NCBI RefSeq assembly: GCF_018977255.1
Contig: NW_024704743.1
Coordinates: 28,460,001-28,524,000 of the forward strand
Origin: Callorhinchus milii
Lineage: Eukaryota
Direction: 5' to 3'
Length of the DNA stretch: 64,000 nucleotides
This document shows positions 1,144-63,510 of the stretch, in pieces. The number at the start of each line of letters is the position of its first letter. Positions within the stretch are counted from its first letter, which is position 1. The notes under the pieces are model-generated. The model did no database searches. It was not told where the DNA came from and was given only the letters and a program-made list of their open reading frames with translations. The position numbers and the translations under genes are program-made.

Positions 1144-1452
1144 AATAATAATAATAATAATCCTTGCATTTGATATAGCGCTTTTCATGTCTTCTATATG
1201 TCTCAAAGCGCTTTACAGAATATAATGTAAAGTGAATTGACTGTATACTTGTGGGCGAAACACGGCAGTCAATTGTGGACAGCAGTGTCCCACAAACAGT
1301 CGTGGATTGACCAAATTACTATTATTTTTTTTCTTGAGGGATTATTATCAGGCATGTGGGGTAAGGAAACTTGCCCAAGGTTTCGCCCTGCCAGGAATCG
1401 AACCCAGGTCTTTCGCTTGCGAGGCGAGTGCTCTAACCACTGAGCTACAGGA
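1144..1452 (-). mobile_element. tRNA(Ala-like)-derived SINE with L2-type tail
   Basis: Minus strand reads TCCTGTAGCTCAGTGGTTAGAGCACTCGCC... (A box), GGTTCGATTCC (B box), then a tail ending GCGCTATATCAAATGCAAGG(ATT)n. Confidence 0.9.
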
Positions 1453-1847
1453 ATGGAAGTTTGCTGTATTTTTAGTAACTTTGTTACTGATTAACAAAAT
1501 GCTGTAGAATCTCAGGATATCCAATTTTACTAAATTATTTAGATCCAAAAGTAATTTAAAAATGTGTTTTATGTGATGTGCACCTTCACTAATTCATTGA
1601 CAATCTATTCCTCTTGAGATTGGAAATGAAGATACTGGAATTGCTCAGAATATACAGTTCTACAATTACTTCTCCATATACCGTGTGTCCAAAGGCTAAT
1701 ATCGTTCCCCAAAAGAAACGTTATGGATCTGGAATTTTTCTCCCTATTTTTAGTAAATGAAATCGGAAAACAAAACAGAGCAAGTAGTAATCCAAATGTT
1801 CTCTTTTATAAAAACATAACAGTTTTTTTTTCAAGAAGAGTACATAC

Positions 1848-3519: not shown

Positions 3520-5100
3520 CATCTACTACACCCCGAAACTCTGGAACCCTCTCCCTCAATCCCTCCGCCTTGCCCCCTCTCTCCCCCTTTTCAAGTCCCA
3601 CCTCTCACCCACCCCCACCGGGCTCCAAGTCAGGCTCTGCAACTGTTAAGCCTTCTGGAACGCTAGCTATAAATGTGAGTTAACGGAGCAAGGGACCTGA
3701 CCAACAAATTCAAGCAAATCTGGAAAAAATTCACATCCCAATAATAGTTTCAAAGTATTTGGATACTGGCCTGGGCTTTACAAACCTGGAGATGTTATAG
3801 AGGTTTCTTATTCCTCTTGTGCATGAAAGCTATATCACAAAACTTTACCAGTTGAACCCAATGTCCACTTGATTGCACCGGAGAGCACAGTTTTACTCCA
3901 TATTTTCAAACTTGTACAATTGAACCTTGCATTCACAATATCTTTGCAGCTGTACTCTTATTAAATTTCCTTACCATTGTAATATATATCTCTCAATCAA
4001 TTCAACACCATACAAGTATCTGCCTACCTCAATAATTTAGCTTTCTGCACTTGAAAGATATTAGCTGTTTCAATCCGATACAATTACTAAATGAAAGTTC
4101 TTTATTTCTATTAACTGATTCTATTAACTAGATTTCTCCAAGGAGTAAATAATTGCTGCATTAATCTCAGTAATTTATGAAAACTTGAACAACATCGTGC
4201 ATTTATATAGGACACTTCACAAAGGATAAGCGGTGTCTGAGTGCTTAAGGGATCTCCCATAACTGATAGTAGGAATAATAATAATCCTTGCATTTGATAT
4301 AGCGCTTTTCACGTCGGGAGGACGTCCCAAAGCGTTTCACAGAACACACTGTAAAGTGAATTGACTGTATATTTGTGGGCAAACGCGGCAGCCAATTGCG
4401 CACAGCAATGTCCCACAAACAGTCGTAGATTGAAAATGACCAATTTATTATTGTTTTGGTTTTGGAGGGATTATTATTAGGCGTGTGGAGTAAGGAAACT
4501 TGCCCAAGGTTTCGCCCTGCCTGGAATTGAACTCAAGTCTCTCGCTTGCAAAGTGAGTGCTCTAACCACTGAGCTACAGGACTCGATAAAGAATACTTTA
4601 TCTAATAGATTTACTGATCTGGTCTTTGAATCATAAGAATGTACAAAACTGGAACCAGATCAGATGGTCCACAGTAGGATGGCAGATGTATGGATTCAGT
4701 GAAACACCACTCCCAGCTCTGGTTCTTGCGGTAAATTGTGAACTGCTATTTGTATTCAGGTTATAAGCAACAGCCCCTTGGAGTTCCTTTCCCTGCCGAT
4801 ACCAGTTTAATGAAAACTAAGAGAACTGAAGTGATGTTTCATGATTGGTCAAGCCTAACATTTATTTTCCAACTCTTATGTCCCTTGTAACATTTCTCAA
4901 TCCACAACACTGTTGTAATATGTAGTTCTTTCATTTAAAAATAAATAAAAATAATTATTAGTATAAAAATATGTATAATATAATTTGTGAGTTTGATATA
5001 GCGCTTGATCATGTCTTCAAGATGTCTCAAATTGCTTGACAAAATACGCTGTAAAGTGAATTGATTGTGTATTTTGTGGGGGCATCGCGGCAGCCAATTG
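3520..5100 (+). repeat. Segmental duplication block (direct copy at about 7545-8835; inverted partial copies at about 45640-46330 and 50620-51250)
   Basis: Long near-identical runs, e.g. GGAGCAAGGGACCTGACCAACAAATTCAAGCAAATCTGGAAAA at about 3687 and 7731, and reverse-complemented at about 46098. Confidence 0.9.
4274..4584 (-). mobile_element. tRNA-derived SINE, full length
   Basis: Complete head and (ATT)n tail. Absent from the paralogous site at about 8325 (TAGGAATACTTT); GAATA on both sides. Confidence 0.92.
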
Positions 5101-23482: not shown

Positions 23483-24689
23483 GTGTGTCTTGACATAGAA
23501 TTATTTGTTTTAATAATGTTTATTATGAGAGTTGTTTCAATCCATATTGCATTTTCCTGTTGCTTTTAAATAATTTGACATTTGATCATTGTGTGCTTCT
23601 TGACTTCCTGATTTCCACTGAAACCTGCTTTTTGGAGTACTTTGTCCGATACCTGAGGCTTCTTTGAGAGGAATGGCAATGTTTCCTTTGCATTTGCTGT
23701 CAGTTTGATGAAGCTGAACTAATTCATCCAGCTGTAGCTAATGAAGACAGTAAACATAGTGATGGAGAAAAACAATGGAAAACTATCCCTGGCACTGAAG
23801 GCAATAATAATAATAATAATAATCCTTGCATTTGATATAGTGCTTTTCACGTCTTCTAGACATCCCAAAGCGCTTCACAGAATATACTGTAATGTGAATT
23901 GTCTGTATGTTTGTGGGCGAAAGCGGCAGCCAATTGTGCACAGCAATGTCCTACAAACAGTCGTAGCTTGAAAATGACCAATTTATTATTGTTTTTGGTT
24001 TTGGAGGGATTATTATTAGGCTCTGTGTGGAGTAAGGAAACTTGCCCAAGGTTTCGCCCTCTGCCTGGAATTGAACTCAAGTCTCTCGCTTGCAAAGCGA
24101 GTGCTCTAACCACTGAGCTACAGGACTCCGAAAGGGATATCCATGGGAACATGTGCCACAGGCAGTTCTCAACCTCTCAGCGTGTCACTTTTTAACACCT
24201 GAGGAAGAACAAAGAAAGGACAAAGTTACCGTACACAGTAGCAAATGTGGAATTTTGATAAATAGTAGTAAGTTCTGCCTGGGTGGCCAGTCTCAAATTC
24301 TAGTAGATTATGCAAACTCAGAAGATTCTGACTCTGAATCAGTAGAAGTGCCGGAGTTTAATATTCACAGCCAGGAAGCCAATCCAGTTAATAATAATAA
24401 GATAACTAAACTAGCTAGTGTCAATACAATACAAGATTCAGAAAAAAATGAAATGTAATCTTGATGTAAGAGATCCTGGAAATTTAAGTTTGCATTATTG
24501 TGGTGAAAAGGATGCAAATATTTATGTATTCTTGGGGCAGTGTTTAACAAATCAGTTACGTGTTTGATTGAATTGAAGAAAACTATTGCCAGGTTACAGG
24601 GAAGAAATCTTTTTCCTTATAATGCAATAGCATTGCTAAGACTACTGTTTCAAATTGAAACACTTAGCGGTATTACACTACATGAATAA
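23483..24689 (+). pseudogene. LINS1: Decayed terminal exon of a Lines homolog (LINS1-like), interrupted by a SINE
   Basis: After acceptor tttcttgcag: FNPYCIFLLLLNNLTFDHCVLLDFLISTETCFLEYFVRYLRLL*EEW, then ILVDYANSEDSDSES, then C-terminal CLIELKKTIARLQGRNLFPYNAIALLRLL. These match Lines family motifs. In-frame TGA at 23491 and about 23666, plus a SINE insertion. Confidence 0.85.
23803..24129 (-). mobile_element. tRNA-derived SINE, full length, inside the LINS1-like exon
   Basis: GGAGTCCTGTAGCTCAGTGGTTAGAGCACTCGCTTTGCAAGCGAG head on minus; (ATT)n tail. Confidence 0.92.
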
Positions 24690-39900: not shown

Positions 39901-41792
39901 CATAATACAACTCATCTCATTCTGACTATCCTTTTAAGTTAGCTTAGAATTAATAGATCCCAAATCGGATCATCAAACAAGATTGTTCTCGTCCACTGAA
40001 AAATGGTTTCAGCTAAATATAAAAATATTATTAACAAGGAAGCAGTTTCAGGATTAACCTGAATAACACAAACAATCTTGTCCTTTAAACTCTGTGGCAG
40101 TTAAGGCAGTGAGGTTTTTATTACTATCGCGGTTGATTTAGCTCAGAGCTCTTATCTATTCTGTAAAACCCTTTGTTTGGTAGCAATGAATGTTTGGCAT
40201 TTGCTGATGAAACTTGGCCCGTGATTACTGAATTAGCTCAGTTTCTGCTGCAGAAAACAATAAAAGCTCTTTCTCATCAGAAATGAATACAACCCAAAGG
40301 CTTTGCTTTACATTGGAGGTCATTATTTACAAAGGGTTTGGGCAGTATCAAAAAGCTGGGTGGGGCAAAACTTTGCTCCTCACGCCTCTTTGTCTAGCAG
40401 TAAATAGGAATCTGGTTGTTCAGCGATTGGCAGATCGCTTTTCGGGGCAATAATCCCTCAAATAAAGAGATAGAGATCACTGAACCCACGTCTGTTTATG
40501 CGCAACTGGCTGTTATATTTCGCCCAGAAAATATACACTCATTTCACTTTGTAAGTATATTGTGTGAAGTGCTCGGAGACATCTCAACGACATGATAAGG
40601 TGCTATTTATTGTTTCTATTAGTATTATTATCAAAAGGCCAATCAAGCCAATGAACCTGGGAATCCAATATAAGCCAGATGACGTTTCTCTTATTTTGCT
40701 CTCTGGTCTGCTGTTTAACATTTTCACCAGCATCTAAAACTGCTCTGCACAAGAGCTTATTGTTGAGGTGATCAAGTGTGCAGTGGATGGGAGAGATCCA
40801 CATTGTGTGTGTTCGCTCCCTCATGGTAACAATCTTTCTTGTTTCTTAGATTCCTTTCTCAGCTTCACGGAGTCCTGTAGCTCAGTGGTTAGAGTACTCG
40901 CTTTGCAAGCGAGAGACCTGAGTTCAATTCCAGGCAGGGCGAAACCTTGGGCAAGTTTCCTTACTCCACATGCCTAATAATAATCCCTCCAAAAAACCAA
41001 AAACAACAATAAAAATTGGTCATTTTCAATCTACGACTGTTTGTGGGACATTGCTGTGCGCAATTGGCTGCCACGTTCGCCCACAAATATACAGTCAATT
41101 CACTTTACAGTGTGTTCTGTGAAGTGCTTTGGGACGTCCTCCCGACGTGAAAAGCGCTATACCAAATGCAAGATTATTATTATTATTCAGGGGAAATAGT
41201 CCCACCTTTTTATGTCTCTCCACAAGACTGCAAAGTACATCCTTTCAATCTTGTGAATCTCCTATTGCTTCTTTAAAATGGCGAGCCAAAAACTACATGG
41301 AATGCTCTCAACTATGAACTAACTTTCATCTGATGGTTCAGACAATAATGAACTGTTTTCAACCTCTTCTCCCCTTTTTTGTTTCAGCTTCAAAATGGCC
41401 TGACTTTTGATAAGCTGTTAGACTGGACCGATCCTGACAAGATGGAAAATGATGAGATCGTTGTAATGCTCCCCAAATTTAAGATGGAGAACACCTATGA
41501 CTTCACCTCAACACTTGGTGGTATGGGAATGGTTGATGCTTTTGATTCTTTGAAGGCAAATTTCTCGGGAATGACTGAGAAAAATGACCTGGTTTTGTCA
41601 AAAGTTGTTCACAAAACCTTTGTTGAAGTTAATGAAGAAGGTACTGAAGCAGCAGCTGCCACTGCAGCTATTATGATGTTACGATGTGCAATGATTAGAA
41701 TGGAGTTTGTGGCTGACCATCCATTCCTGTTTTTCATCAGGCACAACAAAACTCGCAACATCCTGTTCTTTGGGAGATTCTCCTCTCCTTAA
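30909..41792 (+). CDS. Intact clade-B serpin (leukocyte elastase inhibitor / SERPINB6-like), 378 aa; coding exons 30909-31076, 33848-33985, 35833-35950, 36921-37063, 39287-39451, 41388-41792
   Basis: Exons of 168/138/118/143/165/405 nt splice in frame without stops. [16 protein letters not shown]...[11 protein letters not shown]...LANRLFG...[11 protein letters not shown]...[20 protein letters not shown]...[11 protein letters not shown]. No signal peptide. RCL almost identical to human SERPINB6; B1 versus B6 orthology unresolved. Confidence 0.95.
31600..33090 (-). mobile_element. Old CR1 3' fragments in serpin intron (about 31600-31925 and 32310-33090)
   Basis: GGCCATTCGACCCATCG / CCCTTCAGCC terminal motifs; [15 protein letters not shown] on minus. 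Confidence 0.65.
34450..35560 (+). mobile_element. Internally deleted L2 LINE (endonuclease N-terminus joined to 3' end)
   Basis: LQNVCSL...[10 protein letters not shown]...GGVALI (APE endonuclease), then HWLP/WNSIP 3' region and tail GAAAGGCACCAAACAAATGTAA(TTG). Confidence 0.88.
37380..37875 (+). mobile_element. Tigger/pogo-like remnant, paralogue of 14226-15215 with a larger deletion
   Basis: Same TA|CAGTAGAAACCCGG start and position in the equivalent intron. Confidence 0.75.
40869..41187 (+). mobile_element. Full-length tRNA-derived SINE specific to copy B last intron
   Basis: TTCA on both sides; empty sites in paralogues at about 19455, 47915 and 53628. Confidence 0.93.
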
Positions 41793-54049: not shown

Positions 54050-56479
54050 CTGCAAACAGGAGTAGAAACCTTCAGCACTCTAAACTAACCTTGCTGGCGG
54101 GGAAAACAGGAAAAGATTCATGAGGAAATCGATTGCAAGATAAAAGGTGACTTGTAATTGGATTTAGAAATTCCAACTACAAGTTACACTTAACATTTTT
54201 TTCCAATAACCAAATGTACATGATCTTGCAGTGGAAACTCTACTCTCAGTAGCTCTCATCTGAGCAAAGTTCTTATGTGTTGGAATAAGGCAAGTCACAT
54301 GGAATGCATAGCATCGAAACAGATCATTTGGCCTAACTAATCCATGACGGTGCTTATACTCCACATGAATTTTCATCCACTTCTTACTCCCTCCCACACC
54401 TTTCTATTCCCTTCTCCCTCACGTGTATACCTAGCTTCCTCTTGAATGCTTCTCTACTTTATGACTCAATAACCACTTCAGGGAGCAAGTTCCACAATTT
54501 CGATGACTTATTAAGGACAGGAACATCCGAAAAACAGCACTCGTACAATACAAGGAAATGACACAAACAGTAGCAGTCAATAAGGGAACTGTGATGTGGG
54601 ATAGAGGAAATATTGTCATCTTCTCAATTTAATGCCTTATCACATTGTTGAGAAATCTCACAGCACTTCACAGGATATATGAGTAGATTCACAGTATTTC
54701 GTAGGTAAAGTGTATTTTGTGTACTTGTCTAAGACAGAAAAATATATATAGTTAACTTCTTGGGAGAAAAGCAGATGAAGTACTTTAAAGAGAAACCACA
54801 CAATTTTCCTTCCCCTTTCAACTTGGGTATTATTTCCCTCTGATAATTAAATTTGGTTCTATTTCTTAAATTGAATTTCTCTACCTTTGCAAGAATATGT
54901 AGGAAACAGAGACTTTCAAAATAATTTTAAAGGTACAGAAAATATTCATTGTGGCATATAAAAGGAAAATATAATCTTAGTCAATTCTCAGGGTTAATAC
55001 TATATTAAGCGCTTTGAGACATCTTGGCGACATGATAAGGCACTATATTAAGTGCAAGGATTATTAAGATCATTATTATTTATTTTGTGTTGCTATGGAG
55101 TCCTTTTGCAGTCAGACAGTCTACAAAATTAGGGTCAAAATGTATAAATTAAGGAACATAATGTTCTTCATAAGCACTTGAACCATTTGAAAAATTTCTC
55201 TTACAAAACTTCCCAGAAATTCCTCCAAATAGCACACATCAAATGAATACTCCTGTAGCGGTGCCTCAGGGAGACTCTTATGGGGAGGGGCCGAGAGAAT
55301 GACACTTGCGCTGTGCTACCCAGAGTCTTAGAATAATGACTATTATATACAGTACAGCTGTATGAGGGTCACAGGCACCGTGTGGTGGTTTGGATCCTAA
55401 ACCCTGTGCGAGTCTGAGAATAATATAATATTTACCCACACCAACACCAGGCCCCGGTCTCTCACCTATCCCTGCAGTGAGCCAGGAGGAGCATCAAGCA
55501 AGTGCCAGGATTAAGTCATCCTTGTTACCTCCCTGGGGACCACATACTATCTGCAGGAGAGCATCGAGTCCCAGACACTGTGAACTGCTTGAAATACAAT
55601 GAATGTGGTTGAAGAGACAAGCTCAAGTGAGTGAGCAGGAATGCGTGTGAAAGTAAGTATTTGAGATGGGAAAGTGAGCTGCAAAGATGTGACCAAAGTG
55701 ATATTGGGAAGAAAAAGAGCAAGTCCTCCTCCTGTTTACCTGTGCTAGGACTGATCACCTACATATACCGTATAGCTACACTGTGACTCAATTTGAGAGG
55801 AATTCAAATAATTGTACTTCAGTCTTTGTTGGCACAAACAGGTTTGTTGCAGTTGTTTGGTGAGAATTATCTTACAATGAATAATTTAAATATCAGCCTG
55901 ACTGCATTCAGCAATGTAGCCAGATACACAGTGTAATAAAGGGCAAAAATATTTCAATTTGTATCATACAGGTTCATCAAAAGCAAATGCTAATACAAAG
56001 CTGGGAACTGGCCTCTATCATCCTTCCTGCTAATAACTTGCAACTGTTACTTTCTATCATTTTTGAGGTGCAAATGTGACTGACATCTGATATTTTATGT
56101 GGTCAATCCTTTTGATATTTAATTGACTTGAGCTTAGTGACTGGAAAGTATTCATTTAAGATACTAGTAGACAAGCAAATGGGAGGTTCGGAGACTTTTT
56201 TTCCCACATAGAGTAATTAGGATATGGAATGCCCTGTTGGGAGTACTGGTTGAGGCAGAAGCCAGCTGAGCAGAGGCAGCGTGTGGTGGAATAGGACGCA
56301 ATAATAATAATCCTTGCATTTGATATAGCGCCTTATGACATCTTTGAGACGTCTCAAAGCACTTCACAGAATATAGTGTAAAGTGAATTGACTGTATTTT
56401 GTGGCCAAAATTTGGCAGCCAATTGCGAATAGCAGTGTCCCAAAAACAGACCAGTGACCACAATATTATTGTTTTTTTG

Positions 56480-57817
56480 TATGCAATTTTTGTACCTTGC
56501 CATTTCGGCATGACTGTGATAGAACACAGGTGACCTTTATCTCCTAATGTAAATCCGCATGCGGTAGTTGAGGCCGGGAGCAGTACTCTTGGACATGTCC
56601 AAATGTTTCTTCGTTTATAGCAATGTGATGTATCAGTTAAATGCCATGAACTAGTTACGGTGTTGTAAAGTTCAACAATTGGGACTGAATACTAGGTGAC
56701 TGGCCACCAGTTCTCTAATATGTCTGAGGTTGTCAGATCTGTTCCTTGGTGATCATTGATGGGAGCCTGCTGGCTTCCATATCATCGAGGTAATGTTGTA
56801 ATTTGCTTAGGAATCTGGACATAAGTATTGAGCAAGCGATACCTTTTTGAAAAGGTTACGCTTCTACTTCTCGGCTATGGGCCAATACCAACAAATTAAC
56901 TGAAGAGTTCATCCCTTCTATAACTTGGGAGATACTGATTATGGAATCCACACTCAACAGATCTTCTTTAATAAGATTATCCATGTTCTCCCCTTTTTTG
57001 GAGAGGATAATTTTTAATTGATTTCAGAGGTGGGCCTGGTGACCCATAAGGGTTTCGATGCCAGTTAAAGGCAGCTGTTACCCCGGTGGCTGTTATGCCC
57101 ATCCATTCAGCTACATCCCTTTTTACCCTTGGTGATATTACTGTCCCCATTTGCCCTCCCAAGACTGTACCCTTATTTCTTTGGACGAAATCTCGGAACA
57201 TTTCTTCGCTCTGTAAATTATAAAGGTCCCTCTAAATAGGGTCACAAACGTCCGTGGGCAAAGACACATTAAAATGCAACATGATCGGTATATATTCGTT
57301 CACGATATTGGGATACAACACATCATATAAACGTTCAATCACACGTCCATTTGCTGGTCCTGTAATTAAAGTCGGACATGATGTGTTCTGTGAGGTGACC
57401 GGGATGATGAAAAACAATATTTCTGGGCCGTATGCATAGATTCCTTCTGGATCCTCCACTGAACAGTTGTAATAGCCCTCATAGCGATGAAAAACGTAAG
57501 GAAATATCAGGTCTCGCTCAGTCATGTTGTTGTATCCTCTGTGTGGACCCAACATCGGGACTCCCCACCTTCCAATAGATACGTTACCTGAAGTCATATT
57601 GTGTCTTTGGAAAATTATAGTGGAAGTGTCGTACCCGTCTGTATCGACGGTACAAGTGAGAGTTAACTGGCTTCCCAACTCTACCTGTATCAGTTGGTAA
57701 GGCTGATGGCGATCTGTACCGTAAACCGGTAAGATGGATCATTTCGACCCTCCATGCTGAAAACATATCCGAAGATGAGTATCCCATTGTAGTCATAATC
57801 ATCAGTAATAGGATCAT
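56480..57817 (-). pseudogene. env: env-like gene: signal peptide, Ig-like domain, RVKR furin site, fusion-peptide/heptad region
   Basis: MILLLMIMTTMGYSS (ATG 57817), frameshift near 57740, GSQLTLTC...EGYYNCSV, TAG at 57232, RVKR 57129-57118, DVAEWMGITATGVTAAFN, then shifted GIETL...ACSILMSRFLSKLQHYLDDMEASRLPSMIT. Several N-x-S/T sequons. Confidence 0.8.
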
Positions 57818-57899: not shown

Positions 57900-58991
57900 A
57901 TTGGTTAATATGATGCCATTCAGCTGTTTTGTCTCCCCTTTTTCCCGTATATTGGATCAAATATATGGAGGGGCTGATCTTGTCCACAATAGGGAACAGA
58001 CCTTCCACTTTGGTGAGAATGGGTTTTCTCTATTACTGAAGTCCAACACCATGACCATGTCCACAATATTATACTCACATTCTCGTACTTTCTGATCAAA
58101 ATACTTTTTCATTTGTTGTTTGTTTCTTCCCAAATGGTTAGTTACAAATTCATTTGTGTGTTGGATATTTACAAGCATTTTATCAACCTACGCTTCGCTG
58201 AAAGCCCCCTGTATGTTTGAGTTTCCTTCCATAGTTACGCCTGGGGAAGGGGGTTGGAGTAAGTGACCCGGTTGCCTCATTATTCTCCCTGTCATTGCCT
58301 GATACGGGGTCAAACCAGTGGCTGAATGTGTGGTTGATCTAAGCGCCATTAAACACATTGACAGCATTTGCACCCATTTGGGTGGGGTGATCTGCACAAT
58401 TTTTTTTAATAGCATCTTAATAGTCCAGTTTCCCTGCTCCTCTACCCCTGAGGATTGAGGGTGGAATGCTATGTGTAACCGCTGTTTAATCCCCAATAGT
58501 TTGGTGAGGGTTTTAAAAACTTTTGCGGTGAAGTGGCTCCCTTGATCGCTATCGAGAACTATTGGTACTCCCCACCTGCAGATCACCTCACTCAATAGTA
58601 TTCTTGCAACGGTAATTACTGTGGCAGCTCTGACAGGAAAGGCTTCGATCCATTTGGAAAATGTATCTAAATTAATCAGAGCATTTCTGTAGTTGCCTGG
58701 TGCAATGGGCAGGGGTCCGATAAAATCAATTTGAACATGTGTCCAGGGTCCTTCTGCCTCTGGGGCACCTTTTAACAGGGCATGATTGGCAGGTGGACCA
58801 GGATTATGCTGTAAGAAAACCAGACAACGGTTAGCGCGAGTGGTTATATCACTGTTGAGGGTGGGCCACCAAGTGGTGGAGCGTATTTTTGATATTGTTG
58901 AATTTACAGCCATATGTCCCCCAATTGGGTGAGAGTGGAATATTTCAAAGAAATCTTCTGCCATGTCAGGGGGAACGCACACCACACCAGG
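57900..58991 (-). pseudogene. pol: Integrase domain of pol
   Basis: HSHPIGGH zinc-finger part, WTHVQIDFIGPLP, DTFSKWIEAFP, DSDQGSHF, HPQSSGVEE, TGLTPYQAMTGR. Confidence 0.93.
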
Positions 58992-59747
58992 AATTTGTGG
59001 TAAAGGTGCCTTTACATATAACTCCCTGGTCTAACAATGATTGTACCATGTCACGGACATACGGGAGGCTTTCGAGTGGGACAGTATGCTGTTTCGCTGG
59101 TGCATGGGTTGTACCATTTATTTCCTCTTCCTGACCCATTCTCCCACAATCATATTTATGTCGAGCTACAACCTCATCGTATTTGATCAGTAATTGTGAT
59201 ACTTGTGCGTTATCGTGTTTGATGGGCTAGTACATCTCAGGCTTCTTTATAGCTGTTACGGCGAACACATCGGACACAATATGGTGTCCATCACTGCGGG
59301 TTAACGCCCTGCTTTCGGGAATACACAGGCATGAATTAGTGTAATCCACTATCATGGTGTTTTTCTGGAGAACGTCAGATCCTACGATGCCACGTTCCCA
59401 AGGTATGGCAATAGCAGCTGGCTGATCAATTTGGATGGTACTATGTATCTTGTTTCCCAGGTGATAGCAGTATTTGCTAATCTCACTCCCTCTTGGGTGG
59501 AACCATTGAATCCCGTAAGGGAAAACACATCTCCGGTTGCCCCACAAAATGTTTTGGGATGCTTTGAATGGAACAATGTAATGCTGGACCCTGTGTCCAC
59601 TAACATTGTTTGCTCTTTGCCCCACGACAATGTAGCAGTTATAAGGGGTCTATTATCTAATGTTTTTTTAAAATGAATGGGAGTGGAATTCCGTTGAGTG
59701 AGGTTCACGGGAATTCGTACGGTCAATCTTTGGGGGGCTGTCTCGCA
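58992..59747 (-). pseudogene. pol: Aspartic protease and N-terminal stub of reverse transcriptase
   Basis: MLVDTGSSIT and GIVGSDVL protease motifs across a frameshift. Then HKYDCGRM...PAKQHTVP...SLLDQGVI...TTNS (RT start), joining directly to integrase. Confidence 0.85.
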
Positions 59748-61752
59748 TCAGTAAGAGGTCTCAATAACATTCACCTCTCCTTCTACTTCGTTCTCCGCGG
59801 GGGGAGCAGATGGACTGACCGAGACTGATTCTATTCTTGTCATTTTTAAACTTTTGATTATCCGTCACCTTCCAAGTGTTACTATAATAGCCAATTGGTC
59901 AAAGGGAATCTCGGCCAGCTTATCTATAAGCCCGGTGGGTATCTCAGGCTGCTTTTTATCCTGGCGTAGATTGGCCCTTCTATTCGGGCATTCTCTGGCC
60001 CAATGTCCCTCTTCCTGACAGATGTGGCAATTGGACCGACTGATTCCCCTCCAAGGACAAGATTGTCTTGACCCGGGCTGGTTTTTATTTTGATAATAAG
60101 AATGTCTTCTATTCTCATAATTAGGGAAAAAAGGCTCTCTGTTTTTGTTCTCTCTCTGACTCTTGGGTCCTTCTATCTCTTCAACCCAGATCAACCTTTT
60201 TAATCCCCCCTTACTTCCCTCAATCTTGGCCTCTCTATGTCTCAGGCGCTGATAATAAGCTCCGTCAGCAATTTTTATCAAATCCTCCCATTCCATGTCA
60301 TCAGTTAATACTCCCGCTATGACTGATTCGATTTCAGGAATGAGTTTTTGGAGAAATGCCTCTCGGTATCTGTTTGACTTTTCTGCATCTTCTGAGCTCA
60401 CTTCTTCCATTTGTATCTGTTTAAACAGCTCCACTAGCCTTTCATGAAACTCTACTGGGCTTTCGTCTCCTGTCTGCACTGCCTTCCCATATGTCTGGCT
60501 TATGTTCCAGGCTTTTCCTTTTGTTAGCATGGTCTTAACCGCCCCTAAAAACACAGTCCCACCTACTTCAGGCTTCAAACTATTCCGCTGCAAGCGCTTT
60601 TGTACTTTCAACTCGATCGCGCTTAACAGTATCCTTTTAAGGTCTTTTTCCTCCAATTCAAGGTGACAATCTCTAAACAGATTGTATTGCTGATTCAACT
60701 CAGTGGGACAAGTGCGTTCTTTGATCGTGCCGAACTGTTGCACATAAGCCACTACTTCCTCGGGTCTTAGTGCCCGTCTATTTGTCTACTCCTTATCGGT
60801 GGTACCAGAGGCATTATCACTAGAAGACGCCTCTTGCTGGTCTTCCCCATCAGACACCTGACCCCTCGTCTGCATTGGGTGAACCCGGCTCCGAGTAGTA
60901 GTGATGACCGCTACTGACTTTCCTGATTCTTCCTCCCACATATCCGAATATATTTTATCTACTTTGTCTATGGCCGTTTGACATTTCAATTATTCCCAAT
61001 TGTTCCCTCTGTCCTAATGGCGCAAACCATCGCCTGCTTGCCCATTAGCATCTCCTTTAGTTTCTCTATTTCTTTCCCACATTGAGTGTGGTCTATCTCA
61101 GTGGCTGAAGGTCGGTTAATTAAGGTGTTAACTGCTCCATTGGCTGCATTCAACTGGATGCTCATAGTCTCACACTTCTGACTATCCTGCAGCGCTATTC
61201 TCCTTTCTTCATGCTGTTCTCTTCCTAGCTTGGCTCGGCTGATTTCACCTTGCATTATGTGTAGGGTGGAGGTTAATTCTATTATCTTTCTTTCCTGATT
61301 CTCACATACTCTTTCCATGCTCCATAATTCTTCCTCCATGTCCTTTTTGTCTGACAAAGTGATCTTTAAACCCTTTTAGTATTTCTGTCGAGCTGTTTTG
61401 TTTTATTTTCATATCCTCTATTTCCTGGTCCTTACTGTCTTGTAATTGTTTGGTTTTAAGTTTCAGATCCTCTATCTCCGTATCCTTATAATCTCGTAGT
61501 TGTTTTAACTCCAAGGCTTTACACTTGTATTCCCTCAACATCCAGTATTTAAAAAAGTTTTTACATCATTTTCCCCCAATTTTGATGTTACCTACTAACT
61601 TCTTCCTCTAACCATTCTATACCATTTTTCTGGCTCGTTTCCTCATGTATGTCCTCTATTTTTAGGCCTGTTTTCTTGCATATTTTCTCCTCATATTTAT
61701 TCAGCCATTGTTGTAAATTATCTTACAATTTTCACTCTTTCTTGTCAGTCAT
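59748..61752 (-). pseudogene. gag: gag with long N-terminal coiled-coil region, capsid-like core, CCHC zinc knuckle and PSAP motif
   Basis: Fragmented ORFs 61302-61541, 60986-61357, 60786-60989 and 59865-60752. QTGDESPVEFHERL (MHR-like), CHICQEEGHWAREC, PSAPP at about 59799-59813. Putative ATG at 61752. Confidence 0.85.
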
Positions 61753-61872: not shown

Positions 61873-61890
61873 GTCCCTTCGTGGTGACCA
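61873..61890 (-). promoter_or_regulatory. Primer binding site, tRNA-Arg(UCG)-like
   Basis: Minus strand TGGTCACCACGAAGGGAC, 3 nt after the LTR terminal CA. Resembles the complement of the vertebrate tRNA-Arg(UCG) 3' end (TGGCGACCACGAAGGGAC, from memory). Confidence 0.75.
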
Positions 61891-61893
61891 ATT

Positions 61894-62563
61894 TGTTGGG
61901 ATTTCCGATCCCGTAGTTCGAAATATGACCTGACAATCCAAAATGGTGCAATAATTATTTTATCATAAGACAGTGTGTAAAGAAGAGCATACTACCGGTT
62001 AATCTGCGTAGAACAAAAGTAGAAGAAGATTTCTTGGCTGTCGTCCTGCTCTTGCCCTGGTTTCTCTGGTGTGAAAAACCTTACTTCCCTCCTGCCAGTC
62101 AGGTCAACTGACTTCTCACTCTTTTTCTCCACTAATTATACCCCTTTCTGAACTCTTGCCAGATACCTTTACCCCCCTTACCACTCGTCCTGCATGTACT
62201 CATCCTGATCAATCATTGGCCTGGCGCCAGCCCACCGGTATTGATAAAGTGAGTCTCCATTTTCTTGTCTATTCCTTATCTTCCTAGACCTAACACTTGA
62301 TGTTTTGCAGACCTTTCCTCCAAGTCTAGCTGGTACCCAAGGTTACAATAACACTTAGCAAAGTGCATCTAGAGAGAGGGGAGATAACGGGTGCCATGGT
62401 TCTAGCCTGTGCCACATACCATAATGTCATGTCATAATGTCAAAGAAAACCAGTAAATTTAGATTGTCAAAACCCCCCATTCATGAACCCATATTAGCTA
62501 TCATTTCAAGCTTAATTTCTGCCTTAGTTCTCTATGATTTTTGTTTTAATAATTTTACCCACA
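61894..62563 (-). mobile_element. 5' LTR of the ERV-like element
   Basis: Minus strand TGTGGGTAAAA...CCCAACA; TATA-like GGGGTATAATT at about 62133-62143. The distal boundary (62563) is tentative. Confidence 0.65.
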
Positions 62564-63205: not shown

Positions 63206-63510
63206 GGAGTCCTGTAGCTCGGTGGTTAGAGCACTCGCTTTGCTAGCGAGAGGCCTGGGTTTGATTCCTGGCAGGGTGAAACCTTGAGCAAGTTTCTTTA
63301 CTCCACACGCCTGATAATAATCCCTCCAAAAAAAAATAATAAATTGGTCATTTCAATCCACGACTGTTTGTGTGACATTGCTGTACGTAATTGGCAGCCA
63401 CATTTTGACCACAAATATACAGACCATTCACTTTACAGTTTATTCTGTCAAGAGCATTGAAACATCTAGACGATGTAAAAAGCCCTATATTAAATGCAAG
63501 GATTATTATT
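63206..63510 (+). mobile_element. tRNA-derived SINE, full length
   Basis: GGAGTCCTGTAGCTCGGTGGTTAGAGCACTCGCTTTGCTAGCGAG...AAATGCAAGGATTATTATT. Confidence 0.9.

Follow-up and report, generated by a model that had tools for sequence, protein, structure and literature searches.

Introduction

Gamma-type retroviral envelope (Env) proteins carry an ISD and a CX6CC motif in the TM subunit and a CXXC motif in the SU subunit. Among class Ib fusion proteins, attachment is provided by a separate protein (paramyxoviruses), an inserted receptor-binding domain (RBD; foamy viruses) or an S1 head (coronaviruses). Capture of immunoglobulin (Ig) domains is already known in gamma-type env: Env-Dbi and Env-Per have a SIRP-like IgV RBD, a canonical Ig domain placed N-terminally in SU, which the available text of Hotzel (10.1101/2024.03.17.585361) reads as a host capture. 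We analyzed a 64,000-nucleotide stretch of Callorhinchus milii DNA (the window) that holds an env remnant with an Ig domain in the same N-terminal place. Env-Dbi and Env-Per are mammalian gamma-type envs with a clear SIRP donor (10.1101/2024.03.17.585361, available part), whereas the clade in the window appears to be F-type and has no recognisable donor. CrocERV31 also has IgSF sequence at the env position of an endogenous retrovirus (ERV), but there, in the accessible part of PMC4299795, a whole host mRNA (Nectin3) replaced env; in the window family one domain is fused into a fusion protein.

The remaining comparisons concern the fusion scaffold and the virus lineage. Lokiretrovirus (Loki) Env, as far as the available text of PMC7947760 shows it, shares with the window family, by eye, a signal peptide, a short F2-like segment whose first strand is GPxxG, an RxKR site, a fusion peptide, helices with an L-x-x-G-R-I-P-like motif at their end, a Cys-rich beta region and a C-terminal anchor. 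It differs in that none of the 19 Loki Envs with a visible N-terminus has an Ig domain, and its RT is a separate lineage; the same text reports Loki absent from three cartilaginous-fish genomes. Foamy virus Env, a class Ib protein and our top Foldseek row, adds a receptor-binding module to a retroviral F scaffold, as the window family probably does, but its RBD of ~330 aa is non-Ig and sits inside the F2-equivalent, whereas the window family has a 100-aa Ig domain ahead of a compact F2 of ~90 aa (PMC11468914, available part). CmiERV lineage I, which is snakehead retrovirus (SnRV)-like, shares the pol clade and a similar gag with coiled coil and CCHC. Its complete copy, in the available text of Han 2015 (PMC4422223), differs from the window in its primer-binding site and in its env, which is gamma-type (ISD, CX6CC).

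We found no prior report of an F-type retroviral env bearing an Ig domain in the literature covered, which stops short of SnRV Env, one 2024 foamy structure and a cartilaginous-fish foamy ERV. The literature covered also takes in parts of 10.64898/2026.05.06.723177, 10.1101/2021.11.23.469661, PMC11521997, 10.1101/2023.10.26.564294, PMC8278194, PMC9967133, PMC10072453, 10.1101/2021.11.05.467493 and PMC10699275. Two surveys of fish and shark env, in their accessible parts, were queried with gamma- or beta-type sequences, so the env type described here falls outside them.

Provirus and env gene

Judged from its sequence, the minus strand of the window holds a decayed, dead provirus of an SnRV-like lineage in a cartilaginous fish (Table 1). 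Such a host agrees with the sequences themselves: the closest intact envs come from sharks, and 24 consecutive bases in this genome are identical to an ERV described from the elephant shark. No 3' LTR or other second LTR copy lies within the window. The gag zinc knuckle matches Pfam zf-CCHC (E 1.7e-6). A deletion near 58995, visible as a gap against copies L019, L020, L022 and L024, removed the remaining RT and the RNase H, which is seen in L020 and L022. Two sequencing runs presumed to be RNA gave coverage on the flanking repeat only. A long coiled coil fronts gag at 60989-61700; its Pfam coiled-coil matches are all weak, and it resembles the smc-like ORF of some lokiretroviruses.

Table 1. 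Features of the provirus and the adjoining repeat, in window coordinates
Feature	Position	Strand	Remarks
5' LTR	61894..62416	-	~520 bp, TG...CA; 78-92% match with the LTR 3' of env in L019, L022, L029
Primer-binding site	61873..61890	-	directly after LTR; from sequence; presumably tRNA-Arg-like
gag, broken into pieces	59868..61700	-	coiled-coil region, capsid-like part, one CCHC zinc knuckle
Protease and RT start	58969..59747	-	Pfam RVP E 0.05; RT fragment by comparison with L024
Integrase, zinc-binding and core domains	58191..58990	-	Pfam rve E 2e-13, Integrase_H2C2 E 1e-11
env, signal-peptide-like start	57740..57817	-	hydrophobic; in frame with Ig B strand in copies L020, L022
env, IgSF (V/I-set-like) domain	57400..57696	-	Cys 57654-57652, Phe at usual Trp place, Cys 57465-57463
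env, F2-like segment	57130..57399	-	Cys, GPxNG strand, LHFN strand, Cys, helix; one stop 57234-57232
env, furin site RVKR	57118..57129	-	~90 codons past Ig end; RxKR/RxRR at equivalent place in P0001-P0004
env, fusion-peptide-like segment	57061..57117	-	Gly/Ala/Thr-rich; second frameshift near 57060
env, helical (heptad-repeat) part of fusion subunit	56736..57059	-	stops 57026, 56858, 56735; helices predicted in P0001
env, Cys-rich beta region remnant of fusion subunit	56476..56691	-	tblastn with P0001 and natural pieces of another copy
Short interspersed repeat, 3' part	56300..56476	.	at env truncation point; repeat families D2/D3

The env gene (57817-56476, minus strand) reads signal peptide, Ig domain, F2-like segment of ~90 aa, RVKR, fusion peptide and helices. 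The Ig B strand GSQLTLTC lies at 57675-57652, with Phe 14 residues past its Cys, and the F strand EGYYNC at 57480-57463. The two cysteines are 63 residues apart (V/I-set range 55-75), and the G strand ends at 57400. A first-pass annotation made from the letters of the window had named these strands, the Phe in place of Trp, the signal peptide, RVKR, the Gly/Ala/Thr-rich segment and the helices, and all of them lie where it put them. It had also needed one frameshift and one stop to read the gene. That count holds as far as the fusion peptide; to reach the helical region a second frameshift must be crossed, and this region has three more stops. The frameshifts are near 57738 and 57060, the stops at 57234, 57026, 56858 and 56735. 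A piece is absent near 56680-56730. Because a short repeat truncates the gene at 56476, the window env has no membrane anchor. Contigs from two independent runs bridge the env breaks without extra or absent letters, so assembly error is ruled out as their source.

Full copies of the repeat at the truncation point have a tRNA-Ala-like head. Five tRNA-Ala calls in the window (1383-1454, 4513-4582, 24056-24126, 40872-40941 and 63208-63279) are probably heads of this repeat.

Ig identity

The reading of the segment after the signal peptide as a V/I-set Ig domain, proposed in the first-pass annotation, is supported by several sequence comparisons. The window piece itself falls short of the curated Pfam cut-offs, with Ig_3 at E 3.8e-4 and ig at E 2.2e-3 (ig 18.7 vs 21.8 bits). 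Among its relatives, the copy in L020 passes at 21.9 bits against 21.8, and L073 is over the cut-off (ig 22.9 bits; Ig_3 E 8.3e-6, V-set E 2.3e-5). We also built I-set-like and V-set profiles from 58 distinct host Ig exons of the same genome. The window domain scores 13.9 bits with the I-set-like profile, against 6.1 for the best of 300 shuffles, and 5.0 bits with the V-set profile, exceeding all 300 shuffles. All shuffles are exceeded by nine of ten env Ig domains with the first profile and seven of ten with the second. In the Atlas, the top match of the window domain is a V-set cluster at 0.95 (190/256 features), and 10/10 of the best named matches fall in one clan.

L073 is a distant relative, with 27–30% identity to the window domain. 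Its PDB search (E up to 10) gave 218 matches, of which the best listed are antibody V domains (light-chain), matched over the full length. The window piece has 0 PDB matches by sequence at E up to 10, and whole P0001–P0004, the intact relatives described below, have no Pfam Ig match. Both L073 and L062 show the canonical Cys-Trp-Cys and D-x-G-x-Y-x-C forms. The C-strand Trp is Phe in the window lineage and Trp in L073, L062 and P0001–P0004; its presence in L073 makes the Phe specific to the window's lineage. AlphaFold gave pLDDT 33.8 for the window piece alone and 42.2 for P0001 with a 9-row alignment.

Fusion scaffold

The env is not gamma-type, as the first-pass annotation had said: the ISD and CX6CC pair is absent from the 11 Ig-bearing copies and the four intact relatives, and the latter have no ISD, CX6CC or CXXC. 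The same motif search detected ISD and CX6CC in control loci L079, L081 and L096. A gamma-type env is therefore ruled out. Furin site, fusion peptide and long heptad helices follow one another in the window up to the truncation, and in P0001–P0004 together with a long ectodomain and a C-terminal anchor.

The part of env after the Ig domain is very probably an F-type fusion protein of the Loki, foamy and paramyxovirus kind. By eye, the Loki Env motifs recur in it in unchanged order from one end of the chain to the other, and the authors of the Loki study link their envs to PF00523 (PMC7947760, available part). In all 19 Loki envs with a visible N-terminus (among 20 of the 23 entries), the mature protein starts at the GPxxG strand, which is the segment after the Ig domain here. 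The Ig domain would thus be an extra head before a complete Loki-type F2. The F2-like segment of the window can be aligned to the intact shark and frog envs and, by eye, matches the mature start of Loki Env. Atlas clusters Baculo_F and Fusion_gly (paramyxovirus F) appear at 0.89, which we treat as a lead only.

The F-type resemblance that the first-pass annotation saw after the furin site thus recurs in Loki motifs, Atlas clusters and, weakly, in structure. Foldseek ranks 1–8 are class Ib proteins (foamy Env, measles, HMPV and RSV F; E 0.012–0.05, TM 0.06–0.08), but the matches are weak because the AlphaFold models are poor. Foldseek against viral models gave no usable match, and VIA had nothing informative. 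Pfam gave no PF00523, foamy or baculovirus-F match for any env piece or intact relative, and PDB profile searches with env found no fusion protein. Searches of the same genome with PF00523 and PF12259 had no match anywhere, controls included, and are hence uninformative.

Virus lineage

The pol of the window family groups with SnRV and CmiERV lineage I by RT identities, a tree of RTs from its own genome and a hand count. In the hand count, the RT of L024 has 72/131 identities to SnRV (55%) and 55/131 to Loki-Bsp (42%), and it has the SnRV-type motif after the QY/FTW strand. The window RT fragment is 75–81% identical to L024. Membership in the lokiretroviruses is ruled out on RT. The nearest solved RT is foamy Pol. 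An integrase tree (13 rows) was uninformative.

Loci L079 and L081 have the env motif of CmiERV lineage I; their RT is 59–62% identical to that of the window family and their env is gamma-type. A tree of 32 RTs, all from the same genome and with no reference viruses, groups both with L064, a locus with an F-type env remnant, in one 97/96 clade. Since gamma-type env sits on sister pol lineages, envs have, by these sequence comparisons, been swapped within the SnRV-like pol group. With L096 included, gamma-type env occurs on two pol lineages.

Distribution and intact relatives

Searching the same genome with the Ig piece gave 18 matches at 12 loci, the window included. At each of the 11 other loci the Ig piece adjoins pol or remaining env. 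An independent sample of 17 loci was found with a shark env, mainly through the fusion subunit; many of these lack the env 5' end. We inspected the 5' env of seven sampled loci and found the Ig E–F strand motif in six of the seven distant lineages, by script in L062, L072, L073 and L075 and by eye in L063 and L065; it was not seen in the 5' env region of L076. Elsewhere in the window, across 109,996 translated residues, the script made 0 chance matches.

Three of these loci (L062:3300-3900, L063:5200-5750 and L075:4000-4400) have an extra domain of ~150 aa between signal peptide and Ig domain, giving a two-domain head. The pieces from L062 and L075 have no Pfam match.

A search of 1.84 billion representatives found intact relatives in Chiloscyllium punctatum (739 aa) and the frog Pelodytes ibericus (723 aa). 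Further intact envs come from Scyliorhinus torazame and Heterodontus francisci (754 aa each). The four are GCC29952 (P0001), KAM8960540 (P0002, the frog protein), XP_072333160 (P0003) and XP_067889054 (P0004). Each has a Cys-Trp-Cys segment, a conserved F2-like stretch, a furin site at residues 269–287 and a C-terminal anchor. Their domain order is that of the window env, and their hosts are three shark orders and a frog. Neither the Ig piece nor a post-furin piece had a match in word-based protein searches, and viral-contig scans found no relative. A profile search recovered two relatives out of 8000 candidates; because it missed P0002, the relatives listed are a lower bound.

A local insertion of the Ig segment is ruled out, since related envs keep it: it is present in the 11 other loci, six of seven distant lineages and the intact shark and frog envs. 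The question of whether intact relatives retain the segment, raised with the original observation, is thus answered for three sharks and a frog. The Ig region has dN/dS of 0.29–0.43 in three close pairs (dS is saturated in the other 7/10), which shows that purifying selection acted on the domain when the virus was still replicating. Across these sequences the Ig domain is an old, family-wide trait and not a recent capture.

The shark envs XP_072333160, XP_067889054 and GCC29952 are 85–88% identical across three orders, with one member per species in the clusters. Between two of them, identity is 93% in the fusion subunit, 83% in Ig, 81% in F2 and 70% in the tail. The window's genome has no orthologue of the intact shark env; its best matches are 26–47%.

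Possible host origin

The first-pass annotation had suggested that a captured host Ig domain serves as a receptor-binding or immune-decoy module. The IgSF assignment stands by sequence, but no host donor emerged from the genome, the PDB or a tree. The best host matches have 24–30% identity, and no host locus in the same genome matches an env Ig domain under E 0.05. The PDB chains nearest to env Ig are generic IgSF members (contactin-2, Dscam, titin and light chains), none better than E 0.011. We built a tree of 10 env and 58 host domains, the host side being the top 60 host matches only. In this poorly resolved tree, 9/10 env domains group apart from the sampled hosts and the frog domain is unplaced.

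The best host match of the L073 Ig domain (E 0.48) is L161 (G000:C14:15863232-15863435), a single V domain of the host that ends in a J-like GxG and may resemble NKp30-type receptors. Against L073 it ranks 1 of 59, though it was picked by that same search, and it is a donor lead only.

Discussion

We consider it fairly likely that the window env belongs to an old class Ib (F-type) clade with an IgSF domain between the signal peptide and a Loki-type F2, in which a vertebrate-derived Ig head serves attachment. Under this model, furin would cut the precursor at RxKR and free the fusion peptide. With this peptide, its heptad helices, Cys-rich beta domains and anchor, the C-terminal subunit would then drive fusion as in foamy Env and paramyxovirus F, whose class Ib subunits refold as described in the available text of PMC11468914. 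The N-terminal subunit would remain attached and display the Ig head, which would supply the attachment given by a separate protein in paramyxoviruses and by the inserted RBD in foamy viruses. The Ig domain would have been taken long ago from a vertebrate cell-surface gene and diverged since. That the head is an attachment module is probable, given its N-terminal position and the precedent of the SIRP-derived IgV head (10.1101/2024.03.17.585361, available part).

With the same architecture, the Ig head could instead be an immune decoy or modulator that engages a lymphocyte IgSF receptor or ligand while the F scaffold attaches. Loki envs function without an Ig head; the L073 domain is V-type in look, and the single V domain with a J-like GxG end is its best host match; and an immune-evasion role for captured domains is raised in the available part of 10.1101/2024.03.17.585361. 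However, the domain is retained across very distant lineages and hosts (27–30% between the window and L073), which makes a single host ligand unlikely, and its position is that of the RBD in gamma-type and coronavirus proteins, as far as the available descriptions go. We regard a decoy role as unlikely.

It is quite improbable that this layout is simply the standard, already annotated Env of SnRV and its kin. The pol is SnRV-like, and UniRef labels P0001 'Ig-like domain-containing protein'. Against this, only two relatives turned up among 1.84 billion representatives, and no 94-kDa protein of SnRV type; the SnRV-like provirus described from a shark carries a gamma-type env (PMC4422223, available part); and the literature, in a search that did not extend to SnRV Env itself, has no F-type env with an Ig domain. 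A virus-made beta sandwich or duplicated F domain II with IgSF-like motifs and no host capture is very improbable: scores are low, no donor was found and F domain II has an Ig-superfamily fold (PMC11468914, available part), but L073 and L062 have the canonical Cys-Trp-Cys and D-x-G-x-Y-x-C, the Pfam cut-off is passed twice and antibody V domains match over the whole length.

If the attachment model is correct, an Ig head on a retroviral F scaffold adds another way in which class Ib proteins attach. Env would then have captured an Ig domain twice independently, here on another fusion class than in the SIRP case. With intact natural members at hand, structure and function can be tested directly. 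The conserved, intact shark env gene may be a domesticated env, judging by its sequence, and may have been co-opted as a fusogen or as an immune protein. A still wider reading is conceivable, though we hold it only tentatively: an undescribed ancient env, F-type with a host-derived V-type Ig RBD head, shuffled among pols and spread over chimaera-like fish, sharks and frogs, with a domesticated gene in three shark orders that would be a non-gamma counterpart of syncytin, missed by gamma-based screens.

The frog relative has a further foamy-like feature. The window env has no clear counterpart of the foamy leader-peptide anchor, but residues 1–65 of KAM8960540 form a foamy-like leader, with a hydrophobic helix at 25–44 and a second furin site at 62.
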